DNA from: Methanobacteriota archaeon
Lineage (GTDB): Archaea > Thermoplasmatota > Poseidoniia > Poseidoniales > Poseidoniaceae
Length of the DNA stretch: 63,535 bases
Reading direction: 5' to 3'
NCBI GenBank assembly: GCA_002710015.1
Contig: PAOW01000029.1
Span: 39,009-102,543, forward strand
Under the pieces are notes generated by a model. That model was not told the origin of the DNA, made no database searches, and saw nothing but the letters and a program-made list of their open reading frames with translations. The position numbers and the translations under genes were made by a program. Shown here piece after piece: positions 11,221 to 48,893 of this stretch (positions are counted from its first letter, which is position 1; every line of letters begins with the position of its first letter).

Positions 11221-11275
11221 TCAAGACTTCCCCTGTGAAAGGGTTCATCCGTGTGATTGTTCCCCCATAGGACGA

Positions 11276-11887
11276 ATGTCATGGAAAGACTCGGTGATTG
11301 ATTGGTTTGACGGGTTTGGCTGGCTCAGCCTTGCCGCCTTATCATTCACCGAAGCGATTATTCAACCTGTTCCTCCTGATTTGCTGTTTTTACCAATGCT
11401 TGTCAACGCATCTGGAGATTCAAACATGGTATTGTGGCTGTGGATTGTAATAACTGTCACAAGTGTCTTGGGTAGTATAATCGGATACTGGGTTGGAAGA
11501 AAATGGGGCAGAAGTCTGTTTAACCGATTCAAGGGAGAAAAACATCTCAGAAAGATTGAGGCCTTAACAACCAGATATGGGACTGTTGGAGTATTCATTG
11601 CAGCGTTTTCACCAATCCCATACAAGGTGTTTGGATGGGCTGCTGGCATGGGAGAAATGAAGATGAAACCATTCATAATAGCTGGATTGTTTGGCAGAGG
11701 ACTACGATTTGGCTTGGAGGCACTGCTTGTTGGTATTTATGGAAACAAAGCGGTCGAAGGTTTAGAGTGGTTACTTGACAGAGAGGTTCTCATTGGAGTA
11801 GTAATTATACTTCTTTGTGGGATTGCTTGGTTATTGTTACGCTGGTGGAATGAATTGAGTATCGACCCCAACATTGATGAACAATAA
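11276..11887 (+). CDS. YqaA/DedA-like (SNARE-associated) membrane protein
   Basis: FTEAIIQPVPPDLLFLPM motif and multiple TM helices. Start moved to ATG 11276, so it no longer overlaps the divergent nob1 gene. Confidence 0.65.
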   Translation: MSWKDSVIDWFDGFGWLSLAALSFTEAIIQPVPPDLLFLPMLVNASGDSNMVLWLWIVITVTSVLGSIIGYWVGRKWGRSLFNRFKGEKHLRKIEALTTRYGTVGVFIAAFSPIPYKVFGWAAGMGEMKMKPFIIAGLFGRGLRFGLEALLVGIYGNKAVEGLEWLLDREVLIGVVIILLCGIAWLLLRWWNELSIDPNIDEQ

Positions 11888-22037: not shown

Positions 22038-23846
22038 CTAGGTCGTGAACAGACCTGTTGCTCCGTCCAAAATGAACGAGGATAACAGACTAGCTAATGC
22101 TGCAATCCAGAGCAATTGTATTGTTTGACCAACAGCACTAGTAAAACCGCCTCCTCTAAGCCTTGTAGCTATGAATGAAACTGCAAGTACTTGAACTAGA
22201 ATAAGGATTGAAGCAATAATTTTGAACATCATAATATTATCTTCAACCGCAGTAGGGTCTTCCATTACAGGTAAAACAAACCCACCTGCTGCGTCTGTGA
22301 TGGAGCCTATGTCTGTCGACTCAGCAATACTTGATGCCACACCAGCAATAGTCTCTCCCAATTGTAAAACGATGGAGATTGTTACGTTTAGTGACACTAC
22401 GGATGATATCAAAAGACCCAAGGCTACACCCCACATAGTAGATGCTGACAGGCTTCTTCTTCGCCTTAGAGACATTAGGTTAGTTATCGAGCGCGAAACC
22501 ATGTCTGCTGTTGCAGCTGGTTCTCCAGATGACTGAGATCCTTCGATGTAGATACGATTGTATCTTGAAATTACAGCTGAGTTGGTATCAGCAGCAAAGT
22601 AATCCCATGCCCTTTCACTATCGATTCTAGTTGACAGACGCTTTTCTAATCGGTCGATTGAAGCATCTAACATACCGAAGTCGATGCCGCGGAGTGCTTT
22701 GATTGTGGCACTTGGTTCTGCACTCCTAGCTTGTGCTGTTCCGCCCAATGCACGAATGAAATCTGGATAAGCCTCATCTCTTCTGAGCACTTTCTTTTCT
22801 TCTCTCTGGACCAAGGTTGATGGAACCAAAAGAGGTGTAAGTGGTATCGCTAGCAGGATCAGCCCATATTTATCCCAACTAACGGTCAGGCCTTCCCAAT
22901 AAGTAATCACGACAATTATTGTAACTATGAATAATAAGGAACTCACCAATCCAGCCCCCATCCACGATTGTCTAAACAGAATTCTAAATGGCGTTTCAAA
23001 CAAATCTCTGGCGAATGTCTGATCGTCAGGAATAGTTGCTCTAAACGCAAATAACGCCCCTATTTGTATTACAATGAATAGGAATCCTGCAAGTAATAAC
23101 CACCTCAGGCGTGTTGCAATTTCTATTGGAGTGTCACTACTACCATTACCAATTTCGAATAGGATTAGATGAATCCCTGCGACTACTAATCCGAATAAAC
23201 CCGCAGAAACCAATGAGACATAGATTTCTTTCAGTGTGTCTACACTCTCTAACCTCGTATCATACAATGTGTTGTATTGCTCAGCGACCGTATCTTGCTC
23301 AGCACGCATGAAAGCGTCGATTGGCTGACCTGCTTCTATTGAAAACGCCATTCGGTCCAGAAAATCAGACCACAATGGTGAAGGAGATTGTTGGGCTACA
23401 ATTCTAGCAGCTTCTGGAAGAGATGTATGCCACTTATCTACCAGTGTCTCAATTCTTTTTACTTCTTGAGCAAGTTCTCCATAGTCTTTCATTTGTCTCA
23501 GTATATCGAAAATTGTGTTGGCTCCAACTTCTCCCAAGGACAATATTCCCATTCTTGTGATGAACATGTGCATCTCTTTTTCGATCTTTAATGCTGACCG
23601 ATTCACTTCTAATACAGGGAAGTAGATTGCAGCAGCTCCCGTAAGTAAAGGCAATATCAGCAACAGAAATACTCCGGTAAATCCAGCAAATAATCCACCT
23701 TCAGCAAATCCGCCAGTTAACCAAATCATCAAAGCTGCCGAGATTAAACCTGCCAATGCAGAGGGTAGAACGAATAGAAATAGGAATCTTGAAACCGGCA
23801 TTTCCAGCCTTCTCAAGGCGATCTGCCATATCGCCATCCTTTCCAT
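22038..23846 (-). CDS. arlJ: archaellum polytopic membrane platform protein ArlJ (FlaJ)
   Basis: 602-aa multi-TM protein immediately downstream of arlI. It shows the two-lobed organisation typical of the FlaJ/TadC/GspF family. The call rests on position plus topology. Confidence 0.8.
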   Translation of the reverse strand: MERMAIWQIALRRLEMPVSRFLFLFVLPSALAGLISAALMIWLTGGFAEGGLFAGFTGVFLLLILPLLTGAAAIYFPVLEVNRSALKIEKEMHMFITRMGILSLGEVGANTIFDILRQMKDYGELAQEVKRIETLVDKWHTSLPEAARIVAQQSPSPLWSDFLDRMAFSIEAGQPIDAFMRAEQDTVAEQYNTLYDTRLESVDTLKEIYVSLVSAGLFGLVVAGIHLILFEIGNGSSDTPIEIATRLRWLLLAGFLFIVIQIGALFAFRATIPDDQTFARDLFETPFRILFRQSWMGAGLVSSLLFIVTIIVVITYWEGLTVSWDKYGLILLAIPLTPLLVPSTLVQREEKKVLRRDEAYPDFIRALGGTAQARSAEPSATIKALRGIDFGMLDASIDRLEKRLSTRIDSERAWDYFAADTNSAVISRYNRIYIEGSQSSGEPAATADMVSRSITNLMSLRRRRSLSASTMWGVALGLLISSVVSLNVTISIVLQLGETIAGVASSIAESTDIGSITDAAGGFVLPVMEDPTAVEDNIMMFKIIASILILVQVLAVSFIATRLRGGGFTSAVGQTIQLLWIAALASLLSSFILDGATGLFTT

Positions 23847-23861
23847 TTCATCACAACCTCA

Positions 23862-25577
23862 TTAACGCTCTGTAATACTAACCCAGGTATCTATCGCGGA
23901 GCGGAATGTATCCCAGCCACCGTTGTAATAGATGTTCAGCAAGTCAAACACGTCGTCATAATGAGTAAGTCCTCTATCCACCATAGTTTGGATTGCTTCT
24001 GTTCTTCGAGTGACCTCGTCGTATACGTCTCTCTTGTTTTCAAACCCTGCCAATGCTGCAATCTTATTCTCAAGCAGGTGAGATTGGAACATTCCACGGA
24101 AATAGTGCTTATCCTTGATTGGATCCCACTCGAACATTCCTCTTGTCAAGACACCATCACTGTGCTTGTTGTAGCCAATAACCTCGTCTATACCGGTAAT
24201 CCTTCTTGCTATACCGCCATTCAATTCAACTACTTCTTGGAAAATAGCGAAATTTAGGTTGTCAAAGAATCTGATTGGAACGTTGATTGGATCTCCTGTA
24301 AACCTTTGAATCATTTTTACGATTGATGATGCGTGGAATGTTGCAATAACAGGGTGACCTGTCTGCATAGCCTGGAATGCAGTTGCTCCCTCAACGCCAC
24401 GTATCTCACCAATTATGATGTATCTGGGACGGGAACGAAGTGCTGCTTTTAGCAAATCAAACATTTCGACTCGGCTTTCTTCATTCTTTGAGTCTCTTGT
24501 AACTAGCCTCTGCCATATCTTGTGCCTAACCTTAACTTCAGGAGTATCCTCAGCAGAGTAAATCTTTACATTGTGATCAATAAATGGTAATATTGCATTG
24601 AGAGTCGTAGTTTTTCCAGAAGCGGTTTCACCACTTACTAGCACTGACATCCCATATTCCAGACATATCCAAATGTATGCTGCTACTTGTGCGCTCATGG
24701 TTCCCCACTGAACAAGTTGAGTTACCGAGATTGTTTCTTCCGCAAATTTCCTGATTGTGAATGAAGGACCTAACATAGATACGTCATCTGAGAATATGAT
24801 ATTGATACGAGAACCGTCCAGTAGAGCACCATCGATAATCGGCTTGTTATCAGATACAGGTCGGCCTATTCGCTCCGACATTGCTCTAAGATATCGAGCC
24901 AGTAAATCCCTTTCGCGGAATCGGATATTTGAGGTAACCATGCCGAACACTTTGTGATCCATGTGAACGTGTTTTAGACCAACAGAGTGTATATCTTCCA
25001 GCATTTCATCTGAGAGCAGTGGCTCTAATGGACCATTCCTGATTAGGTCACGGATGATGATATATCGCAATCGGTCTCGCTGTTCTTTTGTCACGGTTAT
25101 TCTTTTGTCGTCTATTCCTAAGACTTCCCACATCCTACCCTGCCGACGTGTTCCAACTCTAACCTCCGTGTCGAGAACAGTGTATCTATCAATCATACCA
25201 GATAGAATGTTTTCGAATTCATCATCTGTAGTAAAAGAAGGTGCTGTTGGAGCCTCCTGTAATAGAACCTCAATTAGTGTTCTGCGAATATTTTCCTCCT
25301 CGTCTGTGAGTTGTGGCTCCAATCCGAACCACAAGGTTTGGCCCTCTGAACCATCCTCAGAAATCGGCTTATACATGTGGACGAAAATTGGTTCTTTTGT
25401 AATGTAAATTAGATTCATTGGCTCAATTTTTCTTGCATCTCTATCTAGGGGGCCATAGTAATATGGTCTACTTCCATACTTTGCCTCAAAATCGCTCACC
25501 CATTGAGCGACATGCGGATGAGCAGCCATTACTGATTCGAGATCGCCTCTTTGGAATTTGAGTTCTTCGTCAGCCAT
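23862..25577 (-). CDS. arlI: archaellum motor ATPase ArlI (FlaI)
   Basis: Walker A SGETASGKTTTLNA, Walker B-region IIIGEIRG, 571 aa. Start overlaps the arlH stop (TGATG). Confidence 0.93.
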   Translation of the reverse strand: MADEELKFQRGDLESVMAAHPHVAQWVSDFEAKYGSRPYYYGPLDRDARKIEPMNLIYITKEPIFVHMYKPISEDGSEGQTLWFGLEPQLTDEEENIRRTLIEVLLQEAPTAPSFTTDDEFENILSGMIDRYTVLDTEVRVGTRRQGRMWEVLGIDDKRITVTKEQRDRLRYIIIRDLIRNGPLEPLLSDEMLEDIHSVGLKHVHMDHKVFGMVTSNIRFRERDLLARYLRAMSERIGRPVSDNKPIIDGALLDGSRINIIFSDDVSMLGPSFTIRKFAEETISVTQLVQWGTMSAQVAAYIWICLEYGMSVLVSGETASGKTTTLNAILPFIDHNVKIYSAEDTPEVKVRHKIWQRLVTRDSKNEESRVEMFDLLKAALRSRPRYIIIGEIRGVEGATAFQAMQTGHPVIATFHASSIVKMIQRFTGDPINVPIRFFDNLNFAIFQEVVELNGGIARRITGIDEVIGYNKHSDGVLTRGMFEWDPIKDKHYFRGMFQSHLLENKIAALAGFENKRDVYDEVTRRTEAIQTMVDRGLTHYDDVFDLLNIYYNGGWDTFRSAIDTWVSITER

Positions 25578-26293
25578 CAGCTCACCGCCGTGATATCAAC
25601 AATGAAGCCCATGTAAGGCTCTACACGCCATCCTACACTAGATTGAACTGGCCCGGCCGCTCTGAGGAATCTGGTTACAACAATTGTCCGCTTGATTTCT
25701 CCGCCAACGAATCCGGATTGCATGTCTAGTAGTATTTCACATGATGAGCGGAGTTTGTGTAGCAATTTACCATCCATTTCCGATGGATCAACAGTAAGTA
25801 AAAGAGATCTAGATTCACTACACACCCTCCTGAGTTTTTGAAGAACATTCACTTGCTCAACAGTTTCTAGGCCAGTTGGCATTAATGCTGATGCAGAGTC
25901 CACAACTACAACATCGGATTTCTCAATAGCCTCAGAGTCAAGAACGTCAAACAAATCAACACCATCCTTAGTTTCTGCAATTACTCCAAACCTAGAGAAT
26001 ATCAGCAGCCTGCCTGATGCGATATAATCAGTGATAGGATACCCTATTGATTCCATTTGCTCTATCCATCCCCTAGTAGTTAACTCGGTTGTCACCACCA
26101 GAACTTTGGAACCATTTTCTAGCAAACCGAAAACTAATCTTTGGCTTACTAATGATTTACCACTTCCAACCTCACCTTGAATCATCCAAAGGCTACGATT
26201 CGGCAATCTCAATCCCATTGCGTTCGCTAAGCTATCTTGTTCAAGAGTAAATTCATAGCCATCCTCAACGGGTTTTGGAGGTTCATCAAACAC
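25577..26293 (-). CDS. arlH: archaellum KaiC/RecA-like ATP-binding protein ArlH (FlaH)
   Basis: GEVGSGKSLVSQRLVFGLLENGSKVLVVTTE (Walker A in a KaiC-like context), 238 aa, located between the arlG-like gene and arlI. Confidence 0.85.
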   Translation of the reverse strand: MFDEPPKPVEDGYEFTLEQDSLANAMGLRLPNRSLWMIQGEVGSGKSLVSQRLVFGLLENGSKVLVVTTELTTRGWIEQMESIGYPITDYIASGRLLIFSRFGVIAETKDGVDLFDVLDSEAIEKSDVVVVDSASALMPTGLETVEQVNVLQKLRRVCSESRSLLLTVDPSEMDGKLLHKLRSSCEILLDMQSGFVGGEIKRTIVVTRFLRAAGPVQSSVGWRVEPYMGFIVDITAVS

Positions 26294-26780
26294 TCAATCT
26301 CACCTCCGCAGATTCTGAATCTGTGCCTTTAACGCCGTCCACGACAGTTGACTGAACCACTATTGTAACAGTGGCTAAATCATTGTCTGAATAAGCAAAT
26401 GATGCATCAGAGACTGTTACTTCAAGGACGTGGTCAGTAGCCCAAACTCCGCTTGCAGGATACAATGTTGCTGCGCCAACAACCGTGGAAGAAACCCCAT
26501 CAACAAATATTGTGAAAGAGGATTTGTCAAGCGACCTTATTCCAGTGTTTTGAAAATACAATGTTATTTCCTGGTTAGAACCTGACGTATCTAGCAACAC
26601 GTTTCCTCTGTCGCCACTGAATGATACATCTGTTTCAGCATCTGCAACTTTACCTCGATTGTTTTTCCCCGTAGCTTCAGCAACATCTCCCCAAGACTCT
26701 AGCAATACGACAGAGGCCAGGCCACTAATCAATAAAGATGTGACAAGCAAAATCATTGTGCTTGAACCCCCATCTGCCAT
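26286..26780 (-). CDS. arlG: ArlG (FlaG)-like archaellum stator/anchor protein
   Basis: N-terminal archaellin-like hydrophobic helix (STMILLVTSLLISGLASVVLL) followed by a beta-rich domain. Assigned by position (F-G-H-I-J order). Confidence 0.55.
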   Translation of the reverse strand: MADGGSSTMILLVTSLLISGLASVVLLESWGDVAEATGKNNRGKVADAETDVSFSGDRGNVLLDTSGSNQEITLYFQNTGIRSLDKSSFTIFVDGVSSTVVGAATLYPASGVWATDHVLEVTVSDASFAYSDNDLATVTIVVQSTVVDGVKGTDSESAEVRLSV

Positions 26781-26789
26781 TATTTCACC

Positions 26790-27431
26790 TCAGTTTACAG
26801 ACGATACTATCGTTCGACCATCAATTGTCAAAGCTAAGTTATTTGCAGTAGTGTTGGAATTGTCATGTATAAACTCAAATGTTTCACCGGGAAATATAGT
26901 ATCCGGTGAATAACCAACTATTCCAGAGGATAGATTGACAGGCGAATTTGAGTCAATGAATACCCAAGAGAAGTCTGTATTTATATCGGTTGAACCGTCA
27001 TTAGTAACGTTAGCAAAGACTAGTTTTCCAATATTTACAGAAATATTCAGATCTACTCCTGTATTTGGACCTACAACCTCAAGGAAATATAATGAGGGAT
27101 TGTAGAGATACGATGAACCGTAATTAAGGACTTCAAGTCCGGTTACTATACCTCCTGAGATTTGTAGGTTGGCAAGGAATGATCCAGCACTACCGTTTAC
27201 TTCGACTTGACCAGGGGAATATCCCGTGCCAGGATTGTTTATGCTGAATGAAACTACCGCTCCTTCGACATTATCGGCATTCTGTATAGAGAATTTAGCG
27301 ATGGGCTCTGCAGTTGCCTCGATCTGTGCAATGGAATCCTCCACCTGCGCCTCGAGTGTAGCCATCGCTAATGCGAAAACTACGAGCAATGATGTTCCAA
27401 CCACCATCGCTCCAACTGCAACACTTCCCAT
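26790..27431 (-). CDS. arlF: ArlF (FlaF)-like archaellum stator/anchor protein
   Basis: N-terminal hydrophobic helix (GAMVVGTSLLVVFALAMATL) followed by a beta-rich domain. Assigned by position. ATG directly abuts the upstream stop (TGAATG). Confidence 0.55.
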   Translation of the reverse strand: MGSVAVGAMVVGTSLLVVFALAMATLEAQVEDSIAQIEATAEPIAKFSIQNADNVEGAVVSFSINNPGTGYSPGQVEVNGSAGSFLANLQISGGIVTGLEVLNYGSSYLYNPSLYFLEVVGPNTGVDLNISVNIGKLVFANVTNDGSTDINTDFSWVFIDSNSPVNLSSGIVGYSPDTIFPGETFEFIHDNSNTTANNLALTIDGRTIVSSVN

Positions 27432-28241
27432 TCACTCATCTCCTCTTAATGCCCTTGCCCTTCTCCAATTGGATATTAGTGCTGAGAATGTCAGCAACTC
27501 CCTGTGAGGCAAGTGGTCTTCAAGTGCGCTCTCGGTGTCTCCGGGAGCTGCCATTTGAACTATTGCTAGAACGTGTTGTCCCTCATCAGATGTAAGCATT
27601 CCAGAACTCATTGCTTTCTGAGTAAAGGATACTGCCGCCATTCCAGAGAGGTTATCCAGCAAGAGTGCTGCAACCGTTGGTGCACCAACTGTTCCATCCG
27701 CACCATCTCCTAGATGAGCTGGTGCTACTAAGAACGGATTTGATGCTAGCGCTTGAGCCTCATACAATTCCAGTAATGGTGCAGAATCCTCTGCCATAAG
27801 ACGGTCTGAATGGGCATCAGAAATTACCTCGCCAGATGCAGTTATAATTACGTCACCTGCTTCATGGTCTGCTTCAATAGAAGATTCCTCTCCGCTAGAA
27901 ACAGTAACCACATTCTGCTCGATTCTAGTCTCAACTTTACGCAACACATCGTCAACCAAATCCAAGCGATTTGATATCAATCGCTCTAAACCAGATGTGT
28001 CTATGTTAGCCTGAGCCTGTGATGCTGGCATTCCACCTGCTGCGGGTAATGATCCAGAACTGTTCAGTCTTGCACGAGTCGGACCAGGGGCTATTGTCCA
28101 AGCATCCTCCTCAGTTAGTTCCCCCTGTTCGGGAACAGGGACTTGTTCGACTGCTATGTTGGACATAACCCTGAGGCGCTCCTCCGACAGAGGGTTCTGT
28201 GATTCCCCAGTTTTCTCGTTATTACCGAATGGCCACGCCAT
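27432..28241 (-). CDS. hypothetical soluble acidic protein in the ArlC/D/E slot of the archaellum operon
   Basis: Track ORF 27432..28277. GGAGGT lies 7 nt before ATG 28241 (MAWPFGNNEK), which I prefer as the start. No TM helix and no motif I recognise. A-, S-, E- and D-rich. Confidence 0.6.
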   Translation of the reverse strand: MAWPFGNNEKTGESQNPLSEERLRVMSNIAVEQVPVPEQGELTEEDAWTIAPGPTRARLNSSGSLPAAGGMPASQAQANIDTSGLERLISNRLDLVDDVLRKVETRIEQNVVTVSSGEESSIEADHEAGDVIITASGEVISDAHSDRLMAEDSAPLLELYEAQALASNPFLVAPAHLGDGADGTVGAPTVAALLLDNLSGMAAVSFTQKAMSSGMLTSDEGQHVLAIVQMAAPGDTESALEDHLPHRELLTFSALISNWRRARALRGDE

Positions 28242-28266
28242 ATCAGTACCTCCTGATTCCAGTTGA

Positions 28267-28298
28267 GCTCTAAACACTCCAAGAGTGATAATTAGAGC
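28267..28298 (-). promoter_or_regulatory. intercistronic stem-loop between the second archaellin gene and the accessory genes
   Basis: Outer stem GCTCTAA/TTAGAGC (28267-73 with 28292-98) and inner stem CACTC/GAGTG (28275-79 with 28283-87, 3-nt loop), read directly from the sequence. It lies in the 67-nt spacer after the archaellin stop at 28309. Confidence 0.4.
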
Positions 28299-28308
28299 CC
28301 AGCCCGAA

Positions 28309-28896
28309 TCAGATAACTAGGGTTCCTCTGGTTGTGTCAGATAGGTAAAGTGTCTCGTAAGTAGAGCCTCCACCTTCAACGTGTATCCAGAGAGTTACTT
28401 CGCCATTTACTCCAACGCTCAAAGCATCGCATGATGCTGTTGCTGCTGTGTCAGCATCCATAACGAAGGAATAGCTTACACCTGGCAATAAGTTTGTAAC
28501 TGGTCCGTCACCATTACCATCTGCTACGTCATCAACATCATCTGCATTTGTGAAATCACCTGAGACATATTCGTAGTCTCCGTTGGTATCTTCACATGTC
28601 AGCTGGAATTGAACATTCGCTGCTGTTATAACTTCGGAACCTGGTGCGGTCTCAAAGTAAAGTAGGTATGAGTCATCAGGATTGAATACAAATACCGAAT
28701 TAACTGATATCTTACCAGATATTTCTTGTTGTGTATCGCTACCAGATTGTTGTGCGTTTTGTTGCAGTTTCTCACCGGTTTGGATAATTACAGCAGATGC
28801 AACCGCTGCAACCAAAATTAGCGCTATGAATACAATCATTGCACCAATACCAATCGATCCTAGTTCGTTATTTTTAATTTGATTATTTCTCTTCAT
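28309..28896 (-). CDS. arlB: archaellin (ArlB/FlaB), copy 2
   Basis: Class III signal and N-terminal helix ..ELGSIGIGAMIVFIALILVAAVASAVIIQTGEKL.., 195 aa. GGTGAT Shine-Dalgarno sequence in the 9-nt spacer. Confidence 0.88.
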   Translation of the reverse strand: MKRNNQIKNNELGSIGIGAMIVFIALILVAAVASAVIIQTGEKLQQNAQQSGSDTQQEISGKISVNSVFVFNPDDSYLLYFETAPGSEVITAANVQFQLTCEDTNGDYEYVSGDFTNADDVDDVADGNGDGPVTNLLPGVSYSFVMDADTAATASCDALSVGVNGEVTLWIHVEGGGSTYETLYLSDTTRGTLVI

Positions 28897-28905
28897 GATA
28901 TCACC

Positions 28906-29478
28906 TCAAACAACTGTGTCTCCCCTATCAGTTCCCACATAACTTAGCGTCTCATAGGTAGTTCCTCCACCATCAGCGCTAACAATCATGGAATGTTCTT
29001 CATTCAAAACTGGAGGACATCCAGCTCCAGCAGCTCCAACATTCAGTTCTACCATGTAGGTTTCACCAGGATTGAACTGAGCTACAACTGTTGCACCATC
29101 TAATTCAGTAGCCGCAGAAAGATCACCATCTGCAACTGCTGGAGTTCCTGCGCCATCATCACAGATAACTGCCCAATGTACAGCGTCAGCTGCAAGTGGC
29201 TCGGAACCGGGTGCCAATTCAAACACCATGTTTATTTCTTCATTTCCAGCAGTTGGAGTATCTCCTACCCAGACAGTGATTATCGAAATCTTACCCGATA
29301 TCTCTTGCTGTGTGTCGCTACCCGACTGCTGTGCGTTCTGCTGCAGTTTTTCACCCGTCTGGATGATAACTGCGCTCGCAACTGCGGCAACCAAAATGAG
29401 CGCAATGAATACAATCATTGCACCAATTCCGATTGAACCCCAATCGTTTTCTTCTTCATTCATTCTTTTTTTCTGCAT
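28906..29478 (-). CDS. arlB: archaellin (ArlB/FlaB), copy 1
   Basis: ..DWGSIGIGAMIVFIALILVAAVASAVIIQTGEKL.., 190 aa. GAGGTGA lies 7 nt before ATG 29478. Confidence 0.88.
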   Translation of the reverse strand: MQKKRMNEEENDWGSIGIGAMIVFIALILVAAVASAVIIQTGEKLQQNAQQSGSDTQQEISGKISIITVWVGDTPTAGNEEINMVFELAPGSEPLAADAVHWAVICDDGAGTPAVADGDLSAATELDGATVVAQFNPGETYMVELNVGAAGAGCPPVLNEEHSMIVSADGGGTTYETLSYVGTDRGDTVV

Positions 29479-29544
29479 TGGTTTTCACCTCTTTTTTTCT
29501 CTACAATCCTCTCAAACGGCAAACCGCCGCAGAGTGGAATATCA

Positions 29545-30510
29545 TCAGGCGCCGAATTCACCTCCGTCGCCCATATCAATCGATAGCGGCATCACTATCG
29601 TTCCTGTTTCATCAGGGGATAATTTCTCCACAAGTGGGAGAACATCTGCCTTGTAACCCGGAGGCATCCAAGGTTCAAGTAGTAGGTCACGAATTGTTTC
29701 CATACTCCTATTTTGAACGCGAATTGTAACATTGACCTGCCCTGCTGATATCTCATAACCAGTTTGTATGGCAAGTTTTCTAGATAGAGGAATCTCATCA
29801 ATTGCGAAACGTAGACCTGGCTTAACTTCGAACCGCACTAGAATGACATCCCCTGGACGAATTATTGGTAGGTCAATTGATTCGGGAATACATTGCCATT
29901 CTTTTGGGACTGGTGGTGCTAATCTCATCTCAGGAATTGGGCGATTGCCGTCATTGCAAAGACGGACTATCAAAACGCCATTATCTCCGCCAGCTGGCCA
30001 TCTGGTGTCGACGCCCAGCCAGAATTTCCTAAACAGGAACGGGTTTAGGGCCACAGCTGAGTCTACTACTAAATCGCCAATTAACTGCTCAACCTCGTCA
30101 GCAGCATATCCTACCTCTCCAATTTCTGCTGCACCTGTTGCATTTCTGAGTCTTCTAAGAATTGTTTCGATTTCCGCCTCTGTCAGGGTTTTTTCCTTCA
30201 AAAGACGATTAAGCATAGCAATGTTTCTTCTCAATTCTACAACATCTGCCTCCACTGATGCCAGTGTCTTTTCTGCACGTCTGACTGACTTTCTGGCTCG
30301 GGCCAGTTTATGTTGTTCTAGACTGGTTCTTGCATCGTTGATATCATATTCAGTTGCAGCCAAAGAAGACTCATCACCAGATACACCATACACTATATGC
30401 TCCAGCTCTTTACTAGCTCTGATTAATCTGTCAGCACTTGTTTGTGAATCACGAATTACTCTTCGAGCGTCTTCTAGATCGTTAGCACCAACCTCATATT
30501 CTTCAGCCAT
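29545..30510 (-). CDS. hypothetical coiled-coil protein with two CARDB-like beta-sandwich domains and no signal peptide
   Basis: 321 aa. Residues 1 to ~150 are heptad-like and E/R/L-rich. The C-terminal half contains VRLCNDGNRPI and IRVQNRSMETI beta-sandwich-type motifs. ATG overlaps the stop of the upstream giant gene (ATGGCTGA). Confidence 0.65.
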   Translation of the reverse strand: MAEEYEVGANDLEDARRVIRDSQTSADRLIRASKELEHIVYGVSGDESSLAATEYDINDARTSLEQHKLARARKSVRRAEKTLASVEADVVELRRNIAMLNRLLKEKTLTEAEIETILRRLRNATGAAEIGEVGYAADEVEQLIGDLVVDSAVALNPFLFRKFWLGVDTRWPAGGDNGVLIVRLCNDGNRPIPEMRLAPPVPKEWQCIPESIDLPIIRPGDVILVRFEVKPGLRFAIDEIPLSRKLAIQTGYEISAGQVNVTIRVQNRSMETIRDLLLEPWMPPGYKADVLPLVEKLSPDETGTIVMPLSIDMGDGGEFGA

Positions 30511-33500
30511 CTTCTTTCACCTCCCCGTCTTCATCATCTTCGAACAAATCATCTAACTCTATTTCTAATGAGGGCGATTCAACAATTTCATCTTCTGTGA
30601 TTGACTCATCAGTATCCTCATCCTGTGTTAGCAAACTAATGTCCTCATCCCAGTTAGCAACTTCAGCAGTAGAAGATTCGCCATCAGCAGCAACGTTTGG
30701 CTTTGGAGTTGAGATTATTGAAGAAATATCAAGACCATCACTTGCTAATTCTGTTAGAAGACGTGCAGGATCTCCGAGGTCTCTCTCTATTCGGCTAGCC
30801 TGCACTTCAACTTCAGTCAAGCGACCATATAGCGAGCCATACATCCTGTTCGCATTCCAAATCAAGAATACAACACCAACTATCACAACGGCCAAATACC
30901 CGACAAGAGACATAGCGTTCGCTGAATTTCCAGCCATCTGCGGAGGGAAACCAAGGATAACACCAATCATGCCAAGAATTGGCATTGACAGTATTATTGC
31001 CAGCTGCCTCTTTGCGTTTGACAGCACATCAAAGTGATCGCTGTAGAGAGTACTAATTCCCTTTCTTGCTCTCTGGTAGTCCTCATGAATCAACTGGAAT
31101 TCATCTGTTGATTTCCAAGTCATTATCCAAACCCAAACTGCCGCTATGAGAAGGACAACTATTCCTGCGTAGTTGTTGTTAGTCAACTGCATTAGATGGA
31201 ATGCAAAACCTAGTGCCAAAACACCAGAATATACTGCTGCAAGTCGGAATTTATCATTTTGACCCACTAGTCTGATTAAACCAATTGACGTGATGAGTAG
31301 AGCCAAAAATGCAACGAATGACACTCCTATTCCCGGAGACCATGATTCTACTTTTTCGTCTATCTTTTTAGATGTGGAGTTCAGTTCGTCTCCGTTAATG
31401 TATTCTCCACTTACCTTTAGTTCGCATGACACTTCTCGTGATTGTGACCACCAATCTAGGTTTTCATTTTCAACATTCCAAGTGTAAGATTTGCTACTTC
31501 GGGGAGCAATGAACAGTTCTTGTTGTGAAGCATCTTCAATATCAATGCCATCACAAATCAACTCACTTTTAACATCGAATGCAATTGCTGTTCCAACGTT
31601 TGATACAGTTGCAGATATTGTTTGAGATTTGCCTTCGATAAGAGAGTTGTCTTCAAATCCAAAGTTTTCGATTTCCAATTTGGGGTCTGTGTCAAAGTAG
31701 AATGAAAAGGTAGCATTTGAGAATTCTGTAAACCCATTATGCTCATCAGGATGATATAACCTAAATGTCAAGTCATAACCATCATTCGTGACTATATTTG
31801 GGGAGCGGGGTTCATCTATGACAATCTCTAATTCGTTTGTTGCCCAAGCCTCAACCTCTGGAAGAGAGATTACAGAGTGAGATACTCCACCGCAATTATT
31901 ATCCAAATTTAAAACCTCATCTGTGCCATTAATTCGAATAGCAAAGTCCCAATCATAATCTTCATCTGTATCGTAATTAGTTGAATTAATGCGTCTTTCT
32001 GCCCCACACAACTCTATCATGTAAGATACTGAATTTCCTATGCCTTGCGGAGTGTGTGACCACTCGATGAATTCAATTTGTTTATCATCGTCTAGGCTTT
32101 GAACCTCCAATTTGTATTCCTTGTGACTGTATAGCCTAGACATTTTGAGAACGGTTTTTGCAGTCGCAGTTCCTTCAACAGTTGGGTCTTTCGGATCCAT
32201 TGTTAGTATAAAATCAGCTAATAGGTGAATATCAGGATTAAAATCATCTAATTCAATCTTGAATTCTAACGTTGTCGGCACTTGAACTGGCAAAGAGATG
32301 TTGTTATCATATCCAGAAACAAGGTCCCAAGCCAATGAATTCGTTTGCAAACCTGGTTTGAAAATGTCATAAGTTAAATCCACAACCACATCCTTATTTC
32401 CTACATTGGTGATTTCTACTTTCCATGTTCTATCTTGTCCTCTGTAATACTCCATCTCATCTGGCCAGTTTTTGAATTCTACTTTGAATACAGGAGATAT
32501 TTGTAAAGTGAAGGTTCTAGCAACTAAGAAATCCCCATTGTTTGTGCTGTAGAGGGAGATAGTTACGTTGTGGGTATCTCCATCAGCCAGCCTATACTCT
32601 CCACCTAAGGACGGTATTGAAATCGTCAGGTCATTTCCTTGTGAGCCATTGATTGGCAAAACCATTTGATACATCTCCCAACTTGTGTCCCAACCACCCT
32701 CTACAACCGCTGTAACATTGAGGAATTCGATGAGATTGCCATTATTGGTAAACTCTACCTCTATTGTTTCGTTTTGACCAGGAGTAACTTCGTGAAGATT
32801 ATCCACATCGATTTGTAAATCTGTGTCAGCAGAAATATTAGCTACAATTGAAGCGGATTTATTGATTCCGTTAGCCGATTCCACATACAAAGTAGCCATG
32901 TGTAACTCATCAGCACTAGCTTCTGTATCTGGATTTAGACGAATTCTAACAGAGTCACTGTATCCTGGCGCTACAATTACGTTTGTTGGAGATTCTAGTG
33001 AAAAGTCGACATCTCCCCTGTTCGAATCGTCTAACCAAACTGAGAATGTTGTTGCAACATTCCCGGTATTATTGATGTAGACTCTAGTTAACGGAGATTC
33101 GTAAGGCGATAGATCAATAGTGTGATTTGTGGGATATAGCTCGAAGTTTATTGATTCCTCTACCCTAATTAACAATGTGTTCATCGAGAGAACTTCTCCC
33201 GTATCCCTGTCCTCGACTCTTATGTTGATTGGTTGAAGAGTGTCCGCAGGAGCTTGGGGGTCGGTAGTAACACTCAGCGTGATGTTTGAGATGTGATTAC
33301 TTCCAGGAAAGGGATGATCTGACATTGAGGGAGTGAGATTTGAAATGATTGAAGGATTGTTAGTAGTAGATGTATCTAATGTAGCAGTCCAAAGATCAGG
33401 CAAATCATCTTCTATAACCAGTCTGTAACTAGTTATGTCATTACCCGTATTTGCAAACTTAATTGGGATATCGGTTAGATTACCAACATCGGCCTCCAAT

Positions 33501-35476
33501 GGACCCAGTGTGATAATCTCACCATCTTTTATGCTAGGAATGATTATGCTGACGTTTCTTGTAACACTACTAGCAAGAACTCCACTTGATTGCTGGCCTG
33601 CTGTCAGTTGTGGAGTTGCTGTCACAGGAAGTATCAGTTCTCCTGCTAGTGGCATCTCATCTCCCGGGCCATCGATAGCTAGCCAAGATTGGAATATCTC
33701 ACCGACCTCTAATCCTGATACGCTGTTTGGTGTTACTATCGAAGTCCATCTAACTGCCTCGTTATTACTACCTGGGCTTAGTGGAGTGAAACTGGGAGAA
33801 GAGACGGAGATGTTTGCATCTACACCACCTGTAACTGCACCTCCCAGATTGTGCCTGACTTGAACAGATAAGGATAAAATTTCATCGATTCCACCTGAAC
33901 CATTAGCCTCAATTATCTCTTGAGGTGTTAATATTATCTGGTCCGTCTCTGGACTTGGATCTACTGCTATTACTGCTCTGACTACCAATTGTGTAGAGTT
34001 AAGCGCTGGTATACCACCTTCTACTGGGGTTGCGGAAACCCAGCTGTAAATGCTATCTCCTGCTGCATTTCTCTCACCCGTGTCAAGTGGAGACGATATT
34101 GGTGCAGGCGTAACTTGAACGAATACAGTAATGTTTGAGCCGACCGATATGACATCTGTAACGGGTGTTGTTAATATGACATCCCAATTATCTGCCGAAG
34201 AAGATAACCCTGCATCTAAATTAAACGCTGCGGGAACATTTCCCGTGTTTACGATAGTAAATTCTAGGGATTCAGTTTGAGCAGGCGTAACGGTCACTGG
34301 ACCAACTGGGGCAATGACAGTAGCTTGATACTGGTCTCCAACCATAACGTGTGCTACACTGCGAGCGGTGTATGGAGTAGAGGACCCGCTTGTCAAGTTG
34401 AGGTATATATTCTCAAGAGTAGGTTTTACCGCAGAAGCGGGTACTGTAACCAACACTGCGATTGATGTGGATGCACCAGCTTGAAGATTTATGACCGAAC
34501 CATCCTGACTATTGTCATGCCATCCCAAATCTGACCCTAACTGAACTGTTAGATTATCTTCGCTACCAAGGTTGGATATTATCCAAGTCAAAGTCGTTGT
34601 TGCTCCAGGCTCAATCGCCCTGTCTCCTGGAGTGGATACATCAATGATATAGTCGGAAAATGTGATTGTTTCAACCGAACTAATCACAGTATTAGTCCAC
34701 ACTGTCCCATTGAAAATGACTCTAGCCACCATCGTCCATGTGCCCAACAATGGATTTGCATCAAATGATGCAGATAAGGTTCCACCAGCCGAGGGATAGA
34801 GAAGACTACCCGGGTCTAGTATTAGCGTGTTCGACCAAAATGAGACCTTATTACTTGGATTCGATTGTTCCGTGAAATTCAATTCCATTACCGCTGATAA
34901 GTCCATTACACCATCATTTCTAACAGTCGCATCAAATGTGTGAATTGAATGGTTGAGGCGAACATCTGGAAATCCTCCGGTTGGGCCAGGAATATTATCG
35001 CCTAAGACTGTACCAAGGTGGAACAATGTTACGTCAAAGGAAATTGAGTTCTCGTTATTGTTAGTGTTGGTATCTGCTGATGAAGCTACTCTGGCGAAGA
35101 GTGTTTGGTCATCTCCTGAAAGTGCAGTCCAGTTGATTAGTATTGGATTGGAGGAAGTTGCTGCTGGAATATTTCCTAAACTGATTGAGGTTACTACCGA
35201 CTCAGCGGAAGAAGGAGATGCACGATGGACTAAGTTTAGAGTCGCATCTCCATCTCCTTGTCCTGAGTTTGTAACTACAATTCTTACTATATGGTCTCCA
35301 GGAGCAAGCTTTGTTTCACCGGAGTATTCGACAGAACCACCTGATGACAGTGTCATTACAGATACTGAAAAATCGGGTGTTGATCGTCCGCTAGTTGCAT
35401 CAACAGTTAGTGCAGGCATTGCTATCTGCAAAAGAAAAACTGCAAGGATAACAGTTGCAATGTTGCGACTAGACAT
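30503..35476 (-). CDS. giant (1657 aa) envelope protein: signal peptide, many CARDB/NEW3-like domains, five C-terminal TM helices, acidic cytoplasmic tail
   Basis: Signal peptide MSSRNIATVILAVFLLQIAMPALTVDA. At least nine h-x-h-x-N-x-G-N/T strand motifs are present (VVTNSGQG, VRNDGVM, IISNLGSE, IVNTGNV, FANTGND, INNTGNV, FTNNGNL, ITNVGNK, VSNVGTA). The last 281 aa hold 5 hydrophobic helices and then a D/E-rich tail. Confidence 0.85.
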   Translation of the reverse strand: MSSRNIATVILAVFLLQIAMPALTVDATSGRSTPDFSVSVMTLSSGGSVEYSGETKLAPGDHIVRIVVTNSGQGDGDATLNLVHRASPSSAESVVTSISLGNIPAATSSNPILINWTALSGDDQTLFARVASSADTNTNNNENSISFDVTLFHLGTVLGDNIPGPTGGFPDVRLNHSIHTFDATVRNDGVMDLSAVMELNFTEQSNPSNKVSFWSNTLILDPGSLLYPSAGGTLSASFDANPLLGTWTMVARVIFNGTVWTNTVISSVETITFSDYIIDVSTPGDRAIEPGATTTLTWIISNLGSEDNLTVQLGSDLGWHDNSQDGSVINLQAGASTSIAVLVTVPASAVKPTLENIYLNLTSGSSTPYTARSVAHVMVGDQYQATVIAPVGPVTVTPAQTESLEFTIVNTGNVPAAFNLDAGLSSSADNWDVILTTPVTDVISVGSNITVFVQVTPAPISSPLDTGERNAAGDSIYSWVSATPVEGGIPALNSTQLVVRAVIAVDPSPETDQIILTPQEIIEANGSGGIDEILSLSVQVRHNLGGAVTGGVDANISVSSPSFTPLSPGSNNEAVRWTSIVTPNSVSGLEVGEIFQSWLAIDGPGDEMPLAGELILPVTATPQLTAGQQSSGVLASSVTRNVSIIIPSIKDGEIITLGPLEADVGNLTDIPIKFANTGNDITSYRLVIEDDLPDLWTATLDTSTTNNPSIISNLTPSMSDHPFPGSNHISNITLSVTTDPQAPADTLQPINIRVEDRDTGEVLSMNTLLIRVEESINFELYPTNHTIDLSPYESPLTRVYINNTGNVATTFSVWLDDSNRGDVDFSLESPTNVIVAPGYSDSVRIRLNPDTEASADELHMATLYVESANGINKSASIVANISADTDLQIDVDNLHEVTPGQNETIEVEFTNNGNLIEFLNVTAVVEGGWDTSWEMYQMVLPINGSQGNDLTISIPSLGGEYRLADGDTHNVTISLYSTNNGDFLVARTFTLQISPVFKVEFKNWPDEMEYYRGQDRTWKVEITNVGNKDVVVDLTYDIFKPGLQTNSLAWDLVSGYDNNISLPVQVPTTLEFKIELDDFNPDIHLLADFILTMDPKDPTVEGTATAKTVLKMSRLYSHKEYKLEVQSLDDDKQIEFIEWSHTPQGIGNSVSYMIELCGAERRINSTNYDTDEDYDWDFAIRINGTDEVLNLDNNCGGVSHSVISLPEVEAWATNELEIVIDEPRSPNIVTNDGYDLTFRLYHPDEHNGFTEFSNATFSFYFDTDPKLEIENFGFEDNSLIEGKSQTISATVSNVGTAIAFDVKSELICDGIDIEDASQQELFIAPRSSKSYTWNVENENLDWWSQSREVSCELKVSGEYINGDELNSTSKKIDEKVESWSPGIGVSFVAFLALLITSIGLIRLVGQNDKFRLAAVYSGVLALGFAFHLMQLTNNNYAGIVVLLIAAVWVWIMTWKSTDEFQLIHEDYQRARKGISTLYSDHFDVLSNAKRQLAIILSMPILGMIGVILGFPPQMAGNSANAMSLVGYLAVVIVGVVFLIWNANRMYGSLYGRLTEVEVQASRIERDLGDPARLLTELASDGLDISSIISTPKPNVAADGESSTAEVANWDEDISLLTQDEDTDESITEDEIVESPSLEIELDDLFEDDEDGEVKEDG

Positions 35477-35894
35477 CCGCCATTCCCCTCCTGAATGCGT
35501 GGATTTGTACAGATTTACCTTGCCTAGTCCATGCTGCTAGGAGTTGTTCCATCAACCTGTTGTGTACATGATCGTCTATTCCCAGCCTCCTTCTCTCCTC
35601 CCAAAGCAGAAGTTGCTCCGCCTGTGTTAGAACGCCGTCTTTGAGATACAATTCAAGTGTTCTGCGATAGGAATCTCGGTCCGATACAGCGTAAACAATC
35701 TCGTCACCGGGAAGCATGTCTGCTCTATCTTGCAATATATTTCCAAGGTTCAGTGCTTCCTCGTAAGATAAGATTCTTCTATCGAGGTCGCTTTGTATGT
35801 TTGAAGCAATTTCCTGCAAGGAATATTTTGTGGAAGCCTTGTGTATGTGCCGCATGAACTTACGGCATCTGCGAGACATGCGGCTGGCTGCCAT
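35469..35894 (-). CDS. small soluble hypothetical protein (start uncertain)
   Basis: Track ORF 35469..35966 starts with TTG; the first ATG is at 35894. Helical, R/E/L-rich (..GVLTQAEQLLLWEERRRLGIDDHVHNRLMEQLL..). Its stop overlaps the ATG of the giant gene (ATGTCTAG). Confidence 0.5.
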   Translation of the reverse strand: MAASRMSRRCRKFMRHIHKASTKYSLQEIASNIQSDLDRRILSYEEALNLGNILQDRADMLPGDEIVYAVSDRDSYRRTLELYLKDGVLTQAEQLLLWEERRRLGIDDHVHNRLMEQLLAAWTRQGKSVQIHAFRRGMADV

Positions 35895-36060
35895 AGAAAA
35901 TCTATGAACCGGGCGGATTATAATACAATCGCCCGATATGTCAATTTTAATGCGCTGTGCAAGCAAATAGATGCAAAACGCATAAACACAGTGTAGTGAG
36001 CCTTTTTTACCGAATTACCTCAAAACAAACCTTGATTTGGGAGGCCGAATAGGAGCTGCC

Positions 36061-40469: not shown

Positions 40470-42146
40470 ATGGCAGCCAAACAATTGAAGAAAAAAAGAA
40501 ATTGGAAGAAAATCCTCACTATATCGGTTATTACAATATCATTTCTCTTGAGCATAATTGCTATTCTTGCGACAAGCGATATCGATGAGATAAAGTCAGG
40601 TGAGGATGGAGAATCTTCCCTTACCAGAATAGATAGTTTGTATGGAACTCATGGGTGCGAAGAAGGAGGATTTAGTATACAGGTTGGAATTGATGACAAC
40701 AGAAACTCAGTTCTGGAGAGTGAAGAGGTTGATGACATAAGGAACGTTTGCCATGGTAAGCAAGGTGAATCTGGACCAATGGGTGTTCGTGGATACTGGG
40801 GTTACAACGGCAGTGATGGCACTAATGGAACAAATGGGTCTATCGGACAAAACGGTAATTCTCCATTCATATCTGCTAAAACAGGAGAATACGGACCCTG
40901 CTCGAGAGCAGCAGTTATCGAAATGGGAAATAATTCTACCAGTAAGGTTGTGGAATCTGAAATAAAAATATGCTTTGAAAACCTTTCAAGCGGGAGGCTT
41001 AGTGATATCAATCAAAATACAGGGAATTCTTTTTCCACCGGTTGTAATGGAGGGCTTGCAACAGACGAAATCTTTGTTTTTGCAGCGGTAAAAGACGGTA
41101 ATTGCAAACTTTACAAGTTGGATTCTGGAGAAGTTCAGTTACTGTCCCCGGATGTAGATTTCAAGCCGGGAAATAATCTAGGGTTCACTGAATTCAGAGG
41201 TAGAATTTGGTTCGATGCTGATGATGGTTCGGGTTTGGAGTTATGGTCAGTGAATGAATCTTCAATTTGGAAAGAGACCAATCAGAGTTTTTCATTTGAT
41301 AGCGATTCAAAACTAATTATTGTAAACCAAGAATTAGTTCTATCAGCTATTGATGAAATCTTGATAATAGGTGATTCGGATGTGTTGATCGATGTAGCAC
41401 ACACTAATCTCACATCGGATAATGGAGTTCTTATCTTTAACACAGGAGATGGATTATCGATAAATGGCTCAATACATTTGGGAGAGATTCATTCCAAGGC
41501 TATTTACCATGGTGATTACTACTGGTTTTTTGCAAGCACGGATAACGACGGAGTTGAATTATATCGGGCTAATGAGAATGATTTGGAAAAAATGACTACC
41601 ACCTTAAGTCAGTTTGCAGGAGATAATTTGGGGATTAATCTCGTCAATGGGCATATCGTGTTTGATGATTCAGATATTTATTCGTTCAACCCTAACTCAT
41701 TGACATTAACAGTTCTAAACTCGACTATTACAGAAGTATCTACGGACTCAGAGTTTACAATTTTCGATGACAAAATATGGTTTGACTGTGGAATTGCTGG
41801 TTTCGGCTATGAGTTGTGTGTGAGCGACGGCGTAGATGCTTGGTTACACATAGACTACAATCCTGGAATGGCTTCTTCAAGTCCAGCAAATTTTGTTGTT
41901 GTCAAAGAGAATTTATTGTTAATCCTTGATAACCCGATAGAAGGCAGTCAACTAGCGCTAGTCACAGATACTGGTTTTGAGATACTCTGGGATCACAGCA
42001 TATCCAGTCACGCAGGCGGAGTGCATGGAGGTATGTGGTCGGATTCAAGCAGCGTATATTTCATTGGAGACTCCGATGATTACGGGTTGGAACTCTATGG
42101 TTGGTCTCATGGTGAAATAAACGACGAATGGGTTGTAATCTATTGA
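40470..42146 (+). CDS. membrane-anchored protein with a collagen-like Gly-X-Y tract and ELWxxDGT-type propeller repeats
   Basis: N-terminal anchor ILTISVITISFLLSIIAILA. 12 uninterrupted G-X-Y triplets (GKQGESGPMGVRGYWGYNGSDGTNGTNGSIGQNGNS). At least four repeats of the F.A.D...G.EL(W/Y) type (GLELWSV, GVELYRA, GYELCVSDG, GLELYGW). Confidence 0.7.
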   Translation: MAAKQLKKKRNWKKILTISVITISFLLSIIAILATSDIDEIKSGEDGESSLTRIDSLYGTHGCEEGGFSIQVGIDDNRNSVLESEEVDDIRNVCHGKQGESGPMGVRGYWGYNGSDGTNGTNGSIGQNGNSPFISAKTGEYGPCSRAAVIEMGNNSTSKVVESEIKICFENLSSGRLSDINQNTGNSFSTGCNGGLATDEIFVFAAVKDGNCKLYKLDSGEVQLLSPDVDFKPGNNLGFTEFRGRIWFDADDGSGLELWSVNESSIWKETNQSFSFDSDSKLIIVNQELVLSAIDEILIIGDSDVLIDVAHTNLTSDNGVLIFNTGDGLSINGSIHLGEIHSKAIYHGDYYWFFASTDNDGVELYRANENDLEKMTTTLSQFAGDNLGINLVNGHIVFDDSDIYSFNPNSLTLTVLNSTITEVSTDSEFTIFDDKIWFDCGIAGFGYELCVSDGVDAWLHIDYNPGMASSSPANFVVVKENLLLILDNPIEGSQLALVTDTGFEILWDHSISSHAGGVHGGMWSDSSSVYFIGDSDDYGLELYGWSHGEINDEWVVIY

Positions 42147-48782: not shown

Positions 48783-48893
48783 GCATGCAGTGGATAAACT
48801 CAAGGTAATTCAAAGCAACCCCTGCTTTAAATCACAAATAATACCACTTTTTTGATAATTTATTGAGAATTTTTCAAACGACTGTTTGAAGAC

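Follow-up and report, generated by a model that had tools for sequence, protein, structure and literature searches.

A giant Ig-like membrane protein and a coiled-coil partner head the archaellum gene cluster of Poseidoniales and are probably a lineage-specific envelope part of the archaellum

The stretch of DNA analysed here (the window, 63,535 nucleotides (nt) of contig PAOW01000029.1) comes from a genome of Candidatus Poseidoniaceae (Marine Group IIa, MGIIa) and carries a cluster of archaellum (arl) genes. Three further genes lie on the same strand at the upstream end of this cluster, encoding a small helical protein, a giant protein and a 321-amino-acid (aa) protein, p321:

35469..35894, minus strand: small protein, 141 aa, ATG start; the open reading frame (ORF) stays open to a TTG at 35966
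30503..35476, minus strand: giant protein, ORF of 1657 aa
29545..30510, minus strand: p321, ORF of 321 aa

The giant and p321 form a start-stop-coupled, strictly arl-linked pair that heads the arl cluster in every archaellated Poseidoniales lineage sampled. From this linkage and from the architecture of the two proteins we propose that the pair probably belongs to the Poseidoniales archaellum, as an envelope part specific to this lineage.

The three genes are joined by two 8-nt overlaps, one between the stop of the small gene and the start of the giant (ATGTCTAG, 35476-35469) and the other between the stop of the giant and the start of p321 (ATGGCTGA, 30510-30503). Between the p321 stop and the ATG of the first archaellin gene, arlB1, at 29478 lie exactly 66 nt (29479-29544). 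An earlier interpretation of this DNA made from the letters alone (the sequence-only reading) had given the same ORF coordinates, common strand with the arl genes, 8-nt overlaps, 66-nt spacer and GAGGTGA ribosome-binding site, all of which hold on re-reading the window. It had also described a block of 11 same-strand genes starting at 35966. The block is confirmed, running from 35894 to 22038 with no opposite-strand gene inside it, and its upstream end is corrected to 35894 because the ATG of the small gene is set by conservation: in 38 distinct homologous sequences conservation begins at that methionine, and the stretch upstream of it is unconserved. The genes of the block share one strand and have short or overlapping junctions, as expected of an operon. 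On either side it is flanked by genes on the opposite strand, a divergent peroxiredoxin gene upstream and a convergent endonuclease III gene downstream.

The gene order was followed through 84 related loci, 4 from species-representative genomes and 80 from metagenomes (p321 identity 58-97%), in which all 11 window proteins were located by tblastn. All p321 homologues come from metagenome-assembled genomes (MAGs) of Candidatus Poseidoniales (Marine Group II, MGII) or from marine metagenomes, and all are annotated as 'hypothetical'; the p321 of the closest genome, UBA53, is 97% identical to the window copy. An arlB gene directly follows p321 in 79 of the 84 loci. The remaining five comprise four that stop about 170 nt or less past p321, two of which still contain the spacer hairpin motif described below, and one chimeric contig (L046). 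Upstream, the giant lies directly ahead of p321 in all loci with more than ~400 nt of upstream sequence (73/73), and the small gene lies ahead of the giant in all loci reaching that far (40/40). Locus L046 (1..3355) was considered as a counter-example and rejected, since an archaeal giant tail and p321 are joined there to foreign genes: at the p321 stop codon the contig switches to tRNA-Thr and bacterial-like genes (TauD-like, MFS-like), and the G+C content changes from 47% to 58%. With the same order in every informative related locus, the gene arrangement is more than chance.

More distant homologues, from Marine Group IIb (MGIIb, Thalassarchaeaceae), were found with a profile of the most divergent members of the p321 family. 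In four MGIIb lineages p321 is 27-35% and the giant 23-27% identical to the window copies, and the gene order is a giant of 1.6 thousand aa, p321, two archaellins, p281 (a 281-aa protein in the window), an ArlF-like protein, ArlG, ArlH, ArlI and ArlJ. The MGIIb giants align end to end with the window giant at 23-24% identity (E-values of 1e-66 to 1e-85), and at the start-stop junction giant and p321 either overlap by 8 nt or lie 0-1 nt apart. The flanks are not shared: DNA primase and PolD adjoin the cluster in MGIIb, peroxiredoxin and endonuclease III in the window. No homologue of the small protein was found within 10 kb in the MGIIb loci. Since the giant and p321 occur in both MGIIa and MGIIb and the small protein in MGIIa only, the first two make up the core of the module; the small protein is an extra of MGIIa and is dispensable in MGIIb. 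The sequence-only reading had treated the three genes as a trio, of which the giant and p321 hold as a pair and the small protein is restricted to MGIIa. The synteny that it proposed to examine is retained for this pair, which stays joined to arlB-J from MGIIa to MGIIb despite the differing flanks, one chimeric contig aside.

The p321 family forms 55 clusters at 50% identity, with many fragments, among 1.84 billion representative proteins, and every member with readable context sits at an arl cluster. Among the informative loci, with the exception of the chimeric L046, neither p321 nor the giant was found away from arl genes. A search with the transmembrane (TM) and tail region of the giant returned 129 fragmentary Poseidoniales proteins only, and was uninformative on non-archaellated lineages. 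Between MGIIa and MGIIb the identity is ~30% for p321, ~24% for the giant, ~30% for p281 and ArlG, 30-35% for the ArlF-like protein over a partial alignment of 45-103 aa, and 50% for ArlJ. In a group of relatives at the ~60% identity level, p321 (~60%) and the small protein (~62%) are conserved much like ArlH (~65%). Among close MGIIa relatives the giant is the fastest-diverging gene of the block, being 58-85% identical where p321 is 79-97% identical.

The giant starts with a hydrophobic signal or anchor helix (residues 4-28), followed by an ectodomain of ~1350 residues (~30-1377) made of tandem CARDB/NEW3/Ig-like (immunoglobulin-like) beta-sandwich domains. Pfam matches recur in 4-6 of 8 orthologues and include FixG_C (1.9e-9; 6 of 8), NEW3 (6 of 8), CARDB (5 of 8), Ig_VWA7 and a HYDIN-type Ig domain. 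The alignment of MGIIa and MGIIb giants contains nine invariant N-x-G strand motifs ~115 aa apart, which implies roughly 11 tandem beta-sandwich domains in a fixed order. The N-X-S/T sequons are moderately enriched (27, against 18.7±3.8 in shuffled sequence), and none occurs past residue 1385. Within residues ~1382-1539 four hydropathy segments pass the threshold of 1.6, with a fifth, weaker one between them. We read these as five predicted TM helices followed by a putatively cytoplasmic tail, a topology with which the loop charges are consistent under the positive-inside rule. The tail consists of a conserved proximal part (~1540-1600) and a variable acidic end, and residues 1536-1657 contain 35 D/E versus 7 K/R. 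The TM region and the proximal tail are among the best conserved parts of the protein. There was no meaningful match to the giant in the sequence search of PDB, and no recognisable ligand-binding domain was found in the ectodomain, where repeated Ig-like domains are present.

Other candidate surface proteins are encoded elsewhere in the window. A second giant ORF (43932..48803, minus strand, 1623 aa) with a weak Reelin-subrepeat match was considered as a paralogue of the arl-linked giant and rejected, the two proteins being unrelated on comparison. Near it, a gene at 40470..42146 on the plus strand encodes a protein with DUF7151 and a collagen-like repeat. The products of both genes are probably further surface proteins.

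The second member of the pair, p321, has neither a signal peptide nor a TM helix, and acidic N-terminal extensions in its relatives argue against export. An AlphaFold2 model built with a 28-sequence alignment (mean predicted local distance difference test score 78.4, predicted template-modelling score 0.64) contains a long helical hairpin or coiled coil at residues ~9-160, followed by two beta-sandwich domains at 162-231 and 246-311; a single-sequence model, with a local score of 42.7, was discarded. Among 12 family members, NEW3 is matched in 11 and an EzrA-like coiled coil in 6. Foldseek retrieved generic tandem Ig-like folds only, with template-modelling scores below 0.2 when normalised to query length, and a sequence search of PDB gave nothing meaningful for p321. 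The small protein (141 aa) is helical with a basic N-terminus and no TM helix. Its alignment (11 sequences, 57-91% identical to the window copy) has 62 invariant columns, including SDRD-YRRT-ELYL and EQ-LLWEERRRLGI, and it has no match in Pfam, NCBIfam or PDB.

None of the three window proteins matched the Arl profiles (Arch_fla_DE, FlaC_arch, Arch_flagellin; NCBIfam ArlF/G/H) at E<=0.1. The same profiles matched none of the 12 p321 members or 11 small-protein homologues (E<=10) and none of 8 giants (E<=0.01). These searches agree with the statement of the sequence-only reading that the small protein, the giant and p321 do not resemble a known Arl component. They also returned the NEW3, CARDB and Ig-like matches that it had predicted, and no unrelated characterised system was matched.

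Signals in the non-coding parts of the block give a first view of its possible transcription. The features in question are:

35915..35932, minus strand: TATA-like box GCGATTGTATTATAATCC, with a TTATAAT core at 35917-35923, centred ~26 nt upstream of the ATG at 35894
29503..29542, minus strand: spacer hairpin directly past the p321 stop, with an outer stem UCC-N-CCC/GGG-N-GGA (ACUC/GAGA in the window)
29479..29502, minus strand: conserved GTAGAG(ATAC) block, A-rich tract of variable length and Shine-Dalgarno sequence GAGGTGA (29485-29491) ahead of the arlB1 ATG

The box (GCGATTGTnTTATAATCC) stands at the same distance from the ATG of the small gene in nearly all MGIIa loci, and is the sole 12/12 hexamer match in a scan of the region. 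No Shine-Dalgarno sequence lies between it and the ATG. A TATA-like box at 26 nt together with the lack of a Shine-Dalgarno sequence implies a leaderless first gene of an operon. The giant, p321 and arlB1 each have a strong GGAGG-type site. A TGCAT(N)A element is conserved ~60 nt upstream of the small-gene ATG in nearly all MGIIa loci (~35950..35965 in the window, minus strand). It precedes the TATA-like box, between the divergent small and peroxiredoxin genes, and may be a regulator binding site. A GATTGT-type promoter motif common to the small gene and arlB1 was also considered and was not substantiated.

The spacer between p321 and arlB1 contains no canonical TATA box and no U-tract, and without a U-tract past it the hairpin is not a typical terminator. 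Analysis with MAFFT and RNAalifold gave no structure, as the variable inner stems were misaligned, and it was replaced by folding of each sequence and by motif counts. The hairpin folds in all 16 representative MGIIa spacers. Across 55 unique spacers there are 36 distinct inner hairpins, whose sequence varies with compensating changes, and in 41 of the 55 the sense strand folds more stably than the antisense strand. Each of 49 loci has a single copy of the hairpin motif TTCCNCCC...GGGNGGA, located in every case at the p321-arlB1 junction, and the window has no second copy; the spacer has no match in Rfam. The hairpin with the GTAGAG(ATAC)/A-rich block could act in RNA processing or stability, as an attenuator or operator, or within an arlB promoter. 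Co-transcription with the archaellins, as raised by the sequence-only reading, is therefore a possibility. The module and the filament genes seem likely to differ in expression.

The downstream part of the block encodes the archaellum proper:

28906..29478, minus strand: archaellin gene arlB1 (Pfam Arch_flagellin, 1e-22)
28309..28896, minus strand: archaellin gene arlB2 (Pfam Arch_flagellin, 1.9e-19)
27432..28277, minus strand: p281, acidic cytoplasmic protein of 281 aa at the ArlC/D/E position; no family match of the window copy in Pfam or NCBIfam
26790..27431, minus strand: ArlF-like protein, so named by position and an N-terminal hydrophobic helix only (TM-like segment, residues 1-28)
26286..26780, minus strand: arlG (NCBIfam ArlG, 1.1e-16)
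25577..26293, minus strand: arlH (NCBIfam ArlH, 5e-54)
23862..25577, minus strand: arlI (NCBIfam FlaI, 1.2e-201; 671 bits against a curated cut-off of 550)
22038..23846, minus strand: arlJ (NCBIfam ArlJ/FlaJ, 2e-115)

The ArlF-like protein has no match among the Pfam and NCBIfam profiles. Divergent FlaC/D/E proteins are reported for all archaellated archaea. Weak FlaC_arch matches in 3 of 10 p281 orthologues (best E-value 0.06) make p281, which is kept from MGIIa to MGIIb at ~30% identity, the better candidate for a divergent ArlC/D/E, possibly a divergent ArlC/D. An invariant NPFL motif occurs just past the helical region of both p321 (ALNPFLFR, residues 155-160, ~30031..30048) and p281 (SNPFL, residues 179-183, ~27729..27743), and could be due to chance or represent a common docking motif. 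The two proteins were also considered as distant paralogues, which was rejected: the hhalign probability is below 1%, and the NPFL motif alone is in common.

Two observations concern variation in the downstream genes. In MGIIb loci arlJ is followed by a gene for a protein of 326-342 aa (L085, 18426..19454; L087, 18924..19910; L090, 13131..14111), which has a weak Arc_PepC_II match in L090 and is a candidate prepilin/archaellin peptidase (ArlK); in the MGIIa window this position is taken by endonuclease III, encoded on the opposite strand. In-frame stops or frameshifts occur in arlB1 of L075 (~11103..11620) and in the p281 homologues of L033 (12408..13232) and L061 (3703..4524), which are either assembly errors or pseudogenes in some populations.

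The operon itself has been published. A 'putative MGII motility operon' containing 'several orthologous proteins lacking annotations' was described by Tully 2019 (Nat Commun 10:271; PMC6336850), whose Supplementary Table 3 gives it for MAG IN35 (contig NZLM01000078, 5366..19273, 11 proteins). This contig is our locus L004, where arlJ ends exactly at 5366 and the small gene starts 39 nt (13 codons) beyond 19273. The published start inside the small gene suggests that it was probably annotated from Met14, and from the coordinate mapping the published operon therefore consists of exactly these 11 genes. The same study lists UBA53 as MGIIa subclade 3. Complete proposed operons measure 13.8-14.6 kb in all MGIIa subclades (1-8) and 12.6-13.7 kb in MGIIb.10, sizes that require the 5-kb giant gene because arlB-arlJ alone take up ~7.4 kb; they thus provide an indirect test, in the reverse direction, that arl clusters carry the giant.

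In Tully 2019 (PMC6336850, Fig. 4) the three genes are drawn as unannotated 'hypothetical' boxes conserved between subclades, without architecture, topology, coupling, promoter, hairpin, a division into core and accessory parts between MGIIa and MGIIb, or a functional proposal. Large S-layer-like Ig-fold proteins are known from archaeal type IV filament loci (Makarova 2016, PMC4858521; bioRxiv 10.64898/2026.04.22.720090), including the archaellum loci of Methanococcales (arCOG05057) and Thermococcales, where local modification of the surface layer (S-layer) was proposed as their role. The novelty claimed for the module by the sequence-only reading therefore extends to the protein architecture and the related features described here, and not to the 11-gene operon or to Ig-fold S-layer-like proteins of archaellum loci as such. 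New in this work are the protein architecture, in which a multi-pass protein with an array of Ig domains has an obligatory coiled-coil/beta-sandwich partner in the cytoplasm, the order-wide conservation of this pair, the promoter box and the hairpin at the junction. No paper characterising these Poseidoniales proteins was found in the literature. Supplementary file 12 of Tully 2019 also contains clusters with the KEGG name 'FAT1_2_3 protocadherin' at MGIIa/MGIIb frequencies of 0.83/0.17, close to those of flaB (0.86/0.26) and flaH (0.86/0.29); these clusters might be the giant under a spurious name.

Comparison with described systems places the module near two groups of accessory components. 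Like the Ig-fold S-layer-like proteins of archaellum and type IV pilus (T4P) loci, the giant is large, secreted and membrane-anchored, has several Ig-like domains and is encoded inside the locus; its likeness to the arCOG05057 and Thermococcales proteins is one of architecture and locus, taken from published descriptions. It is larger (~11 domains), and its membrane attachment, with five predicted TM helices and a conserved tail, differs from the single C-terminal TM domain described for one such S-layer-like protein of Pyrobaculum/Thermoproteus loci; the multi-pass region is followed by a tail of ~120 residues. Unlike the described S-layer-like proteins, the giant is always coupled to a dedicated cytoplasmic coiled-coil/beta-sandwich partner. 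The second group comprises ArlX, a membrane-anchored coiled-coil protein that forms rings around ArlH/I in Thermoproteota, and ArlCDE, which form a cytoplasmic ring in Euryarchaeota. Both are encoded, like the module described here, in the arl cluster of certain lineages without being core components. However, they lack an extracellular part, unlike the giant, and have no sequence similarity to p321. Of the two ArlX features, an N-terminal TM helix and a cytoplasmic coiled coil, p321 has the coiled coil and no TM helix of its own, and the ArlC/D/E position is held by p281. A third point of comparison is the model for ArlF/ArlG, in which the motor is kept from rotating futilely by a fixed anchor in the envelope, the S-layer. 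The same role is proposed here for the giant, which would be a binding partner and not a homologue of ArlF/G, small archaellin-like proteins that are also encoded in this cluster.

Taking this evidence together, we are fairly confident that the giant and p321 are a functional part of the archaellum or a partner to it. For the specific mechanism, our tentative choice is a transmembrane scaffold or anchor at the archaellum base, a plausible candidate rather than a settled one. In this scaffold model, the module would be transcribed, beginning with the leaderless small gene, from the TATA-like box 26 nt ahead of it, p321 would be made in fixed proportion with the giant, and the p321-arlB1 hairpin would uncouple the expression level of the module from that of the archaellins. 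By binding the conserved cytoplasmic tail or loops of the giant, p321 would complete one envelope-spanning complex, which would serve as a fixed scaffold at the base of the archaellum. Outside the cell the array of Ig domains may form a local S-layer-like collar or an anchor point for the ArlF/ArlG stator, and inside the p321 coiled coil may tie this anchor to the ArlH/I/J motor, possibly via p281. The small protein would be an MGIIa-specific cytoplasmic assembly or regulatory factor. Such a scaffold fits a pair that diverges about as fast as ArlG and p281, and the good conservation of the TM region and proximal tail. It also fits the precedents in other orders and the situation in Thermoplasmatales, where the working of the ArlF/G stator without an S-layer is an open question. 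The reported lack of chemotaxis genes in MGII and of a recognised ArlCDE in this cluster speaks for it as well. The most explicit version, an anchor of the Poseidoniales' own in which a private S-layer-like collar of ~11 Ig domains holds ArlF/G, and the tail and p321 clamp ArlH/I/J, is doubtful in this full form.

Several considerations weigh against the scaffold. Physical contact with the Arl proteins is an assumption of the model, and the expression pattern of the module a prediction. The predicted five-TM topology is derived from hydropathy and the positive-inside rule, with one helix below the threshold of 1.6. The module and the filament genes could be expressed separately, given the spacer hairpin and the chance that arlB has its own promoter. 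The published operon sizes speak only indirectly for the presence of the giant in arl clusters, and MGIIb do without the small protein. That Poseidoniales need a substitute anchor is assumed, and Thermoplasmatales swim without this module. Finally, a giant, fast-evolving, sequon-rich ectodomain of Ig repeats is equally typical of adhesins.

This last point leads to the alternative that survives best, in which the giant is a co-regulated adhesin or surface sensor. It would bind particles or algal surfaces or sense contact, with the five-TM region and p321 relaying the signal inward, and its place next to the arl genes would reflect the joint use of attachment and swimming rather than a structural role in the motor. 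The tandem Ig-like/CARDB ectodomain with its moderate sequon enrichment, and the rapid divergence of the giant among close MGIIa relatives, are what such a protein would display. In line with this reading, MGII archaella have been described as serving to attach the cells to particles, adhesion genes as setting the clades apart, and adhesins as common extra components of archaeal T4P loci; the p321-arlB hairpin would permit separate expression levels. However, ordinary adhesins rarely keep a position at the head of an operon across family-level divergence while the flanks change. The conserved multi-pass region, the conserved tail and the obligatory cytoplasmic coiled-coil partner are atypical of simple adhesins, and the invariance of the nine N-x-G motifs and of the domain order between MGIIa and MGIIb indicates a fixed architecture rather than a variable number of repeats. 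We therefore regard the adhesin or sensor as a possible but minor alternative to the scaffold.

A second alternative transfers the main role to the cytoplasm. Here p321, held by the tail of the giant, would stand in for ArlX or ArlCDE as a ring around ArlH/ArlI, and the ectodomain would be secondary. The cluster contains no ArlC/D/E or ArlX family match, MGII are reported to lack chemotaxis genes and hence the system to which ArlCDE couples, and the coiled coil of p321 (~150 residues) recalls the membrane-anchored coiled coil with which ArlX rings ArlH/I. The ArlH-like conservation of p321 and the small protein at the ~60% identity level would also suit a motor component. On the other hand, the ArlC/D/E position is already occupied by p281 with its weak FlaC_arch matches, in line with the divergent FlaC/D/E proteins of all archaellated archaea. 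The absence of a TM helix from p321 and of any FlaC_arch or Arch_fla_DE similarity from all 12 of its family members also counts against this ring, which leaves an ectodomain of 1350 residues unexplained. A purely cytoplasmic motor scaffold is accordingly improbable. That the module is a general envelope or S-layer-type operon adjoining the arl genes by chance, for which its lack of homology to Arl proteins, its own promoter-like box and the structured spacer ahead of arlB could be cited, is very improbable, given that the adjacency is kept from MGIIa to MGIIb (at 50% ArlJ identity and with the flanks replaced) with no true exception in ~80 informative loci, that p321 was seen in no other context, and that a general S-layer gene would be expected in non-archaellated MGIIb too.

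Marine Group II are the most abundant planktonic archaea of surface oceans, and it is debated whether they use the archaellum to swim or to attach to particles. The value of the present results is limited by the fact that these organisms are uncultured and that the gene arrangement has been in the literature since 2019. The results touch on several questions of the field, namely what the stator pushes against without a regular S-layer, as raised for Thermoplasmatales, how ArlCDE or ArlX are replaced where they are absent, and what the polar anchoring structures are composed of. A strictly arl-linked Ig-array transmembrane protein with a coiled-coil partner provides a concrete candidate for these questions. 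Should the giant turn out to be an adhesin or contact sensor linked with the motility operon, it would bear on how MGII heterotrophs find and hold particles. If the anchor in its most explicit version is confirmed, the pair would represent a new class of archaellum component acting on both sides of the membrane, and would suggest how torque can be generated without a general S-layer.

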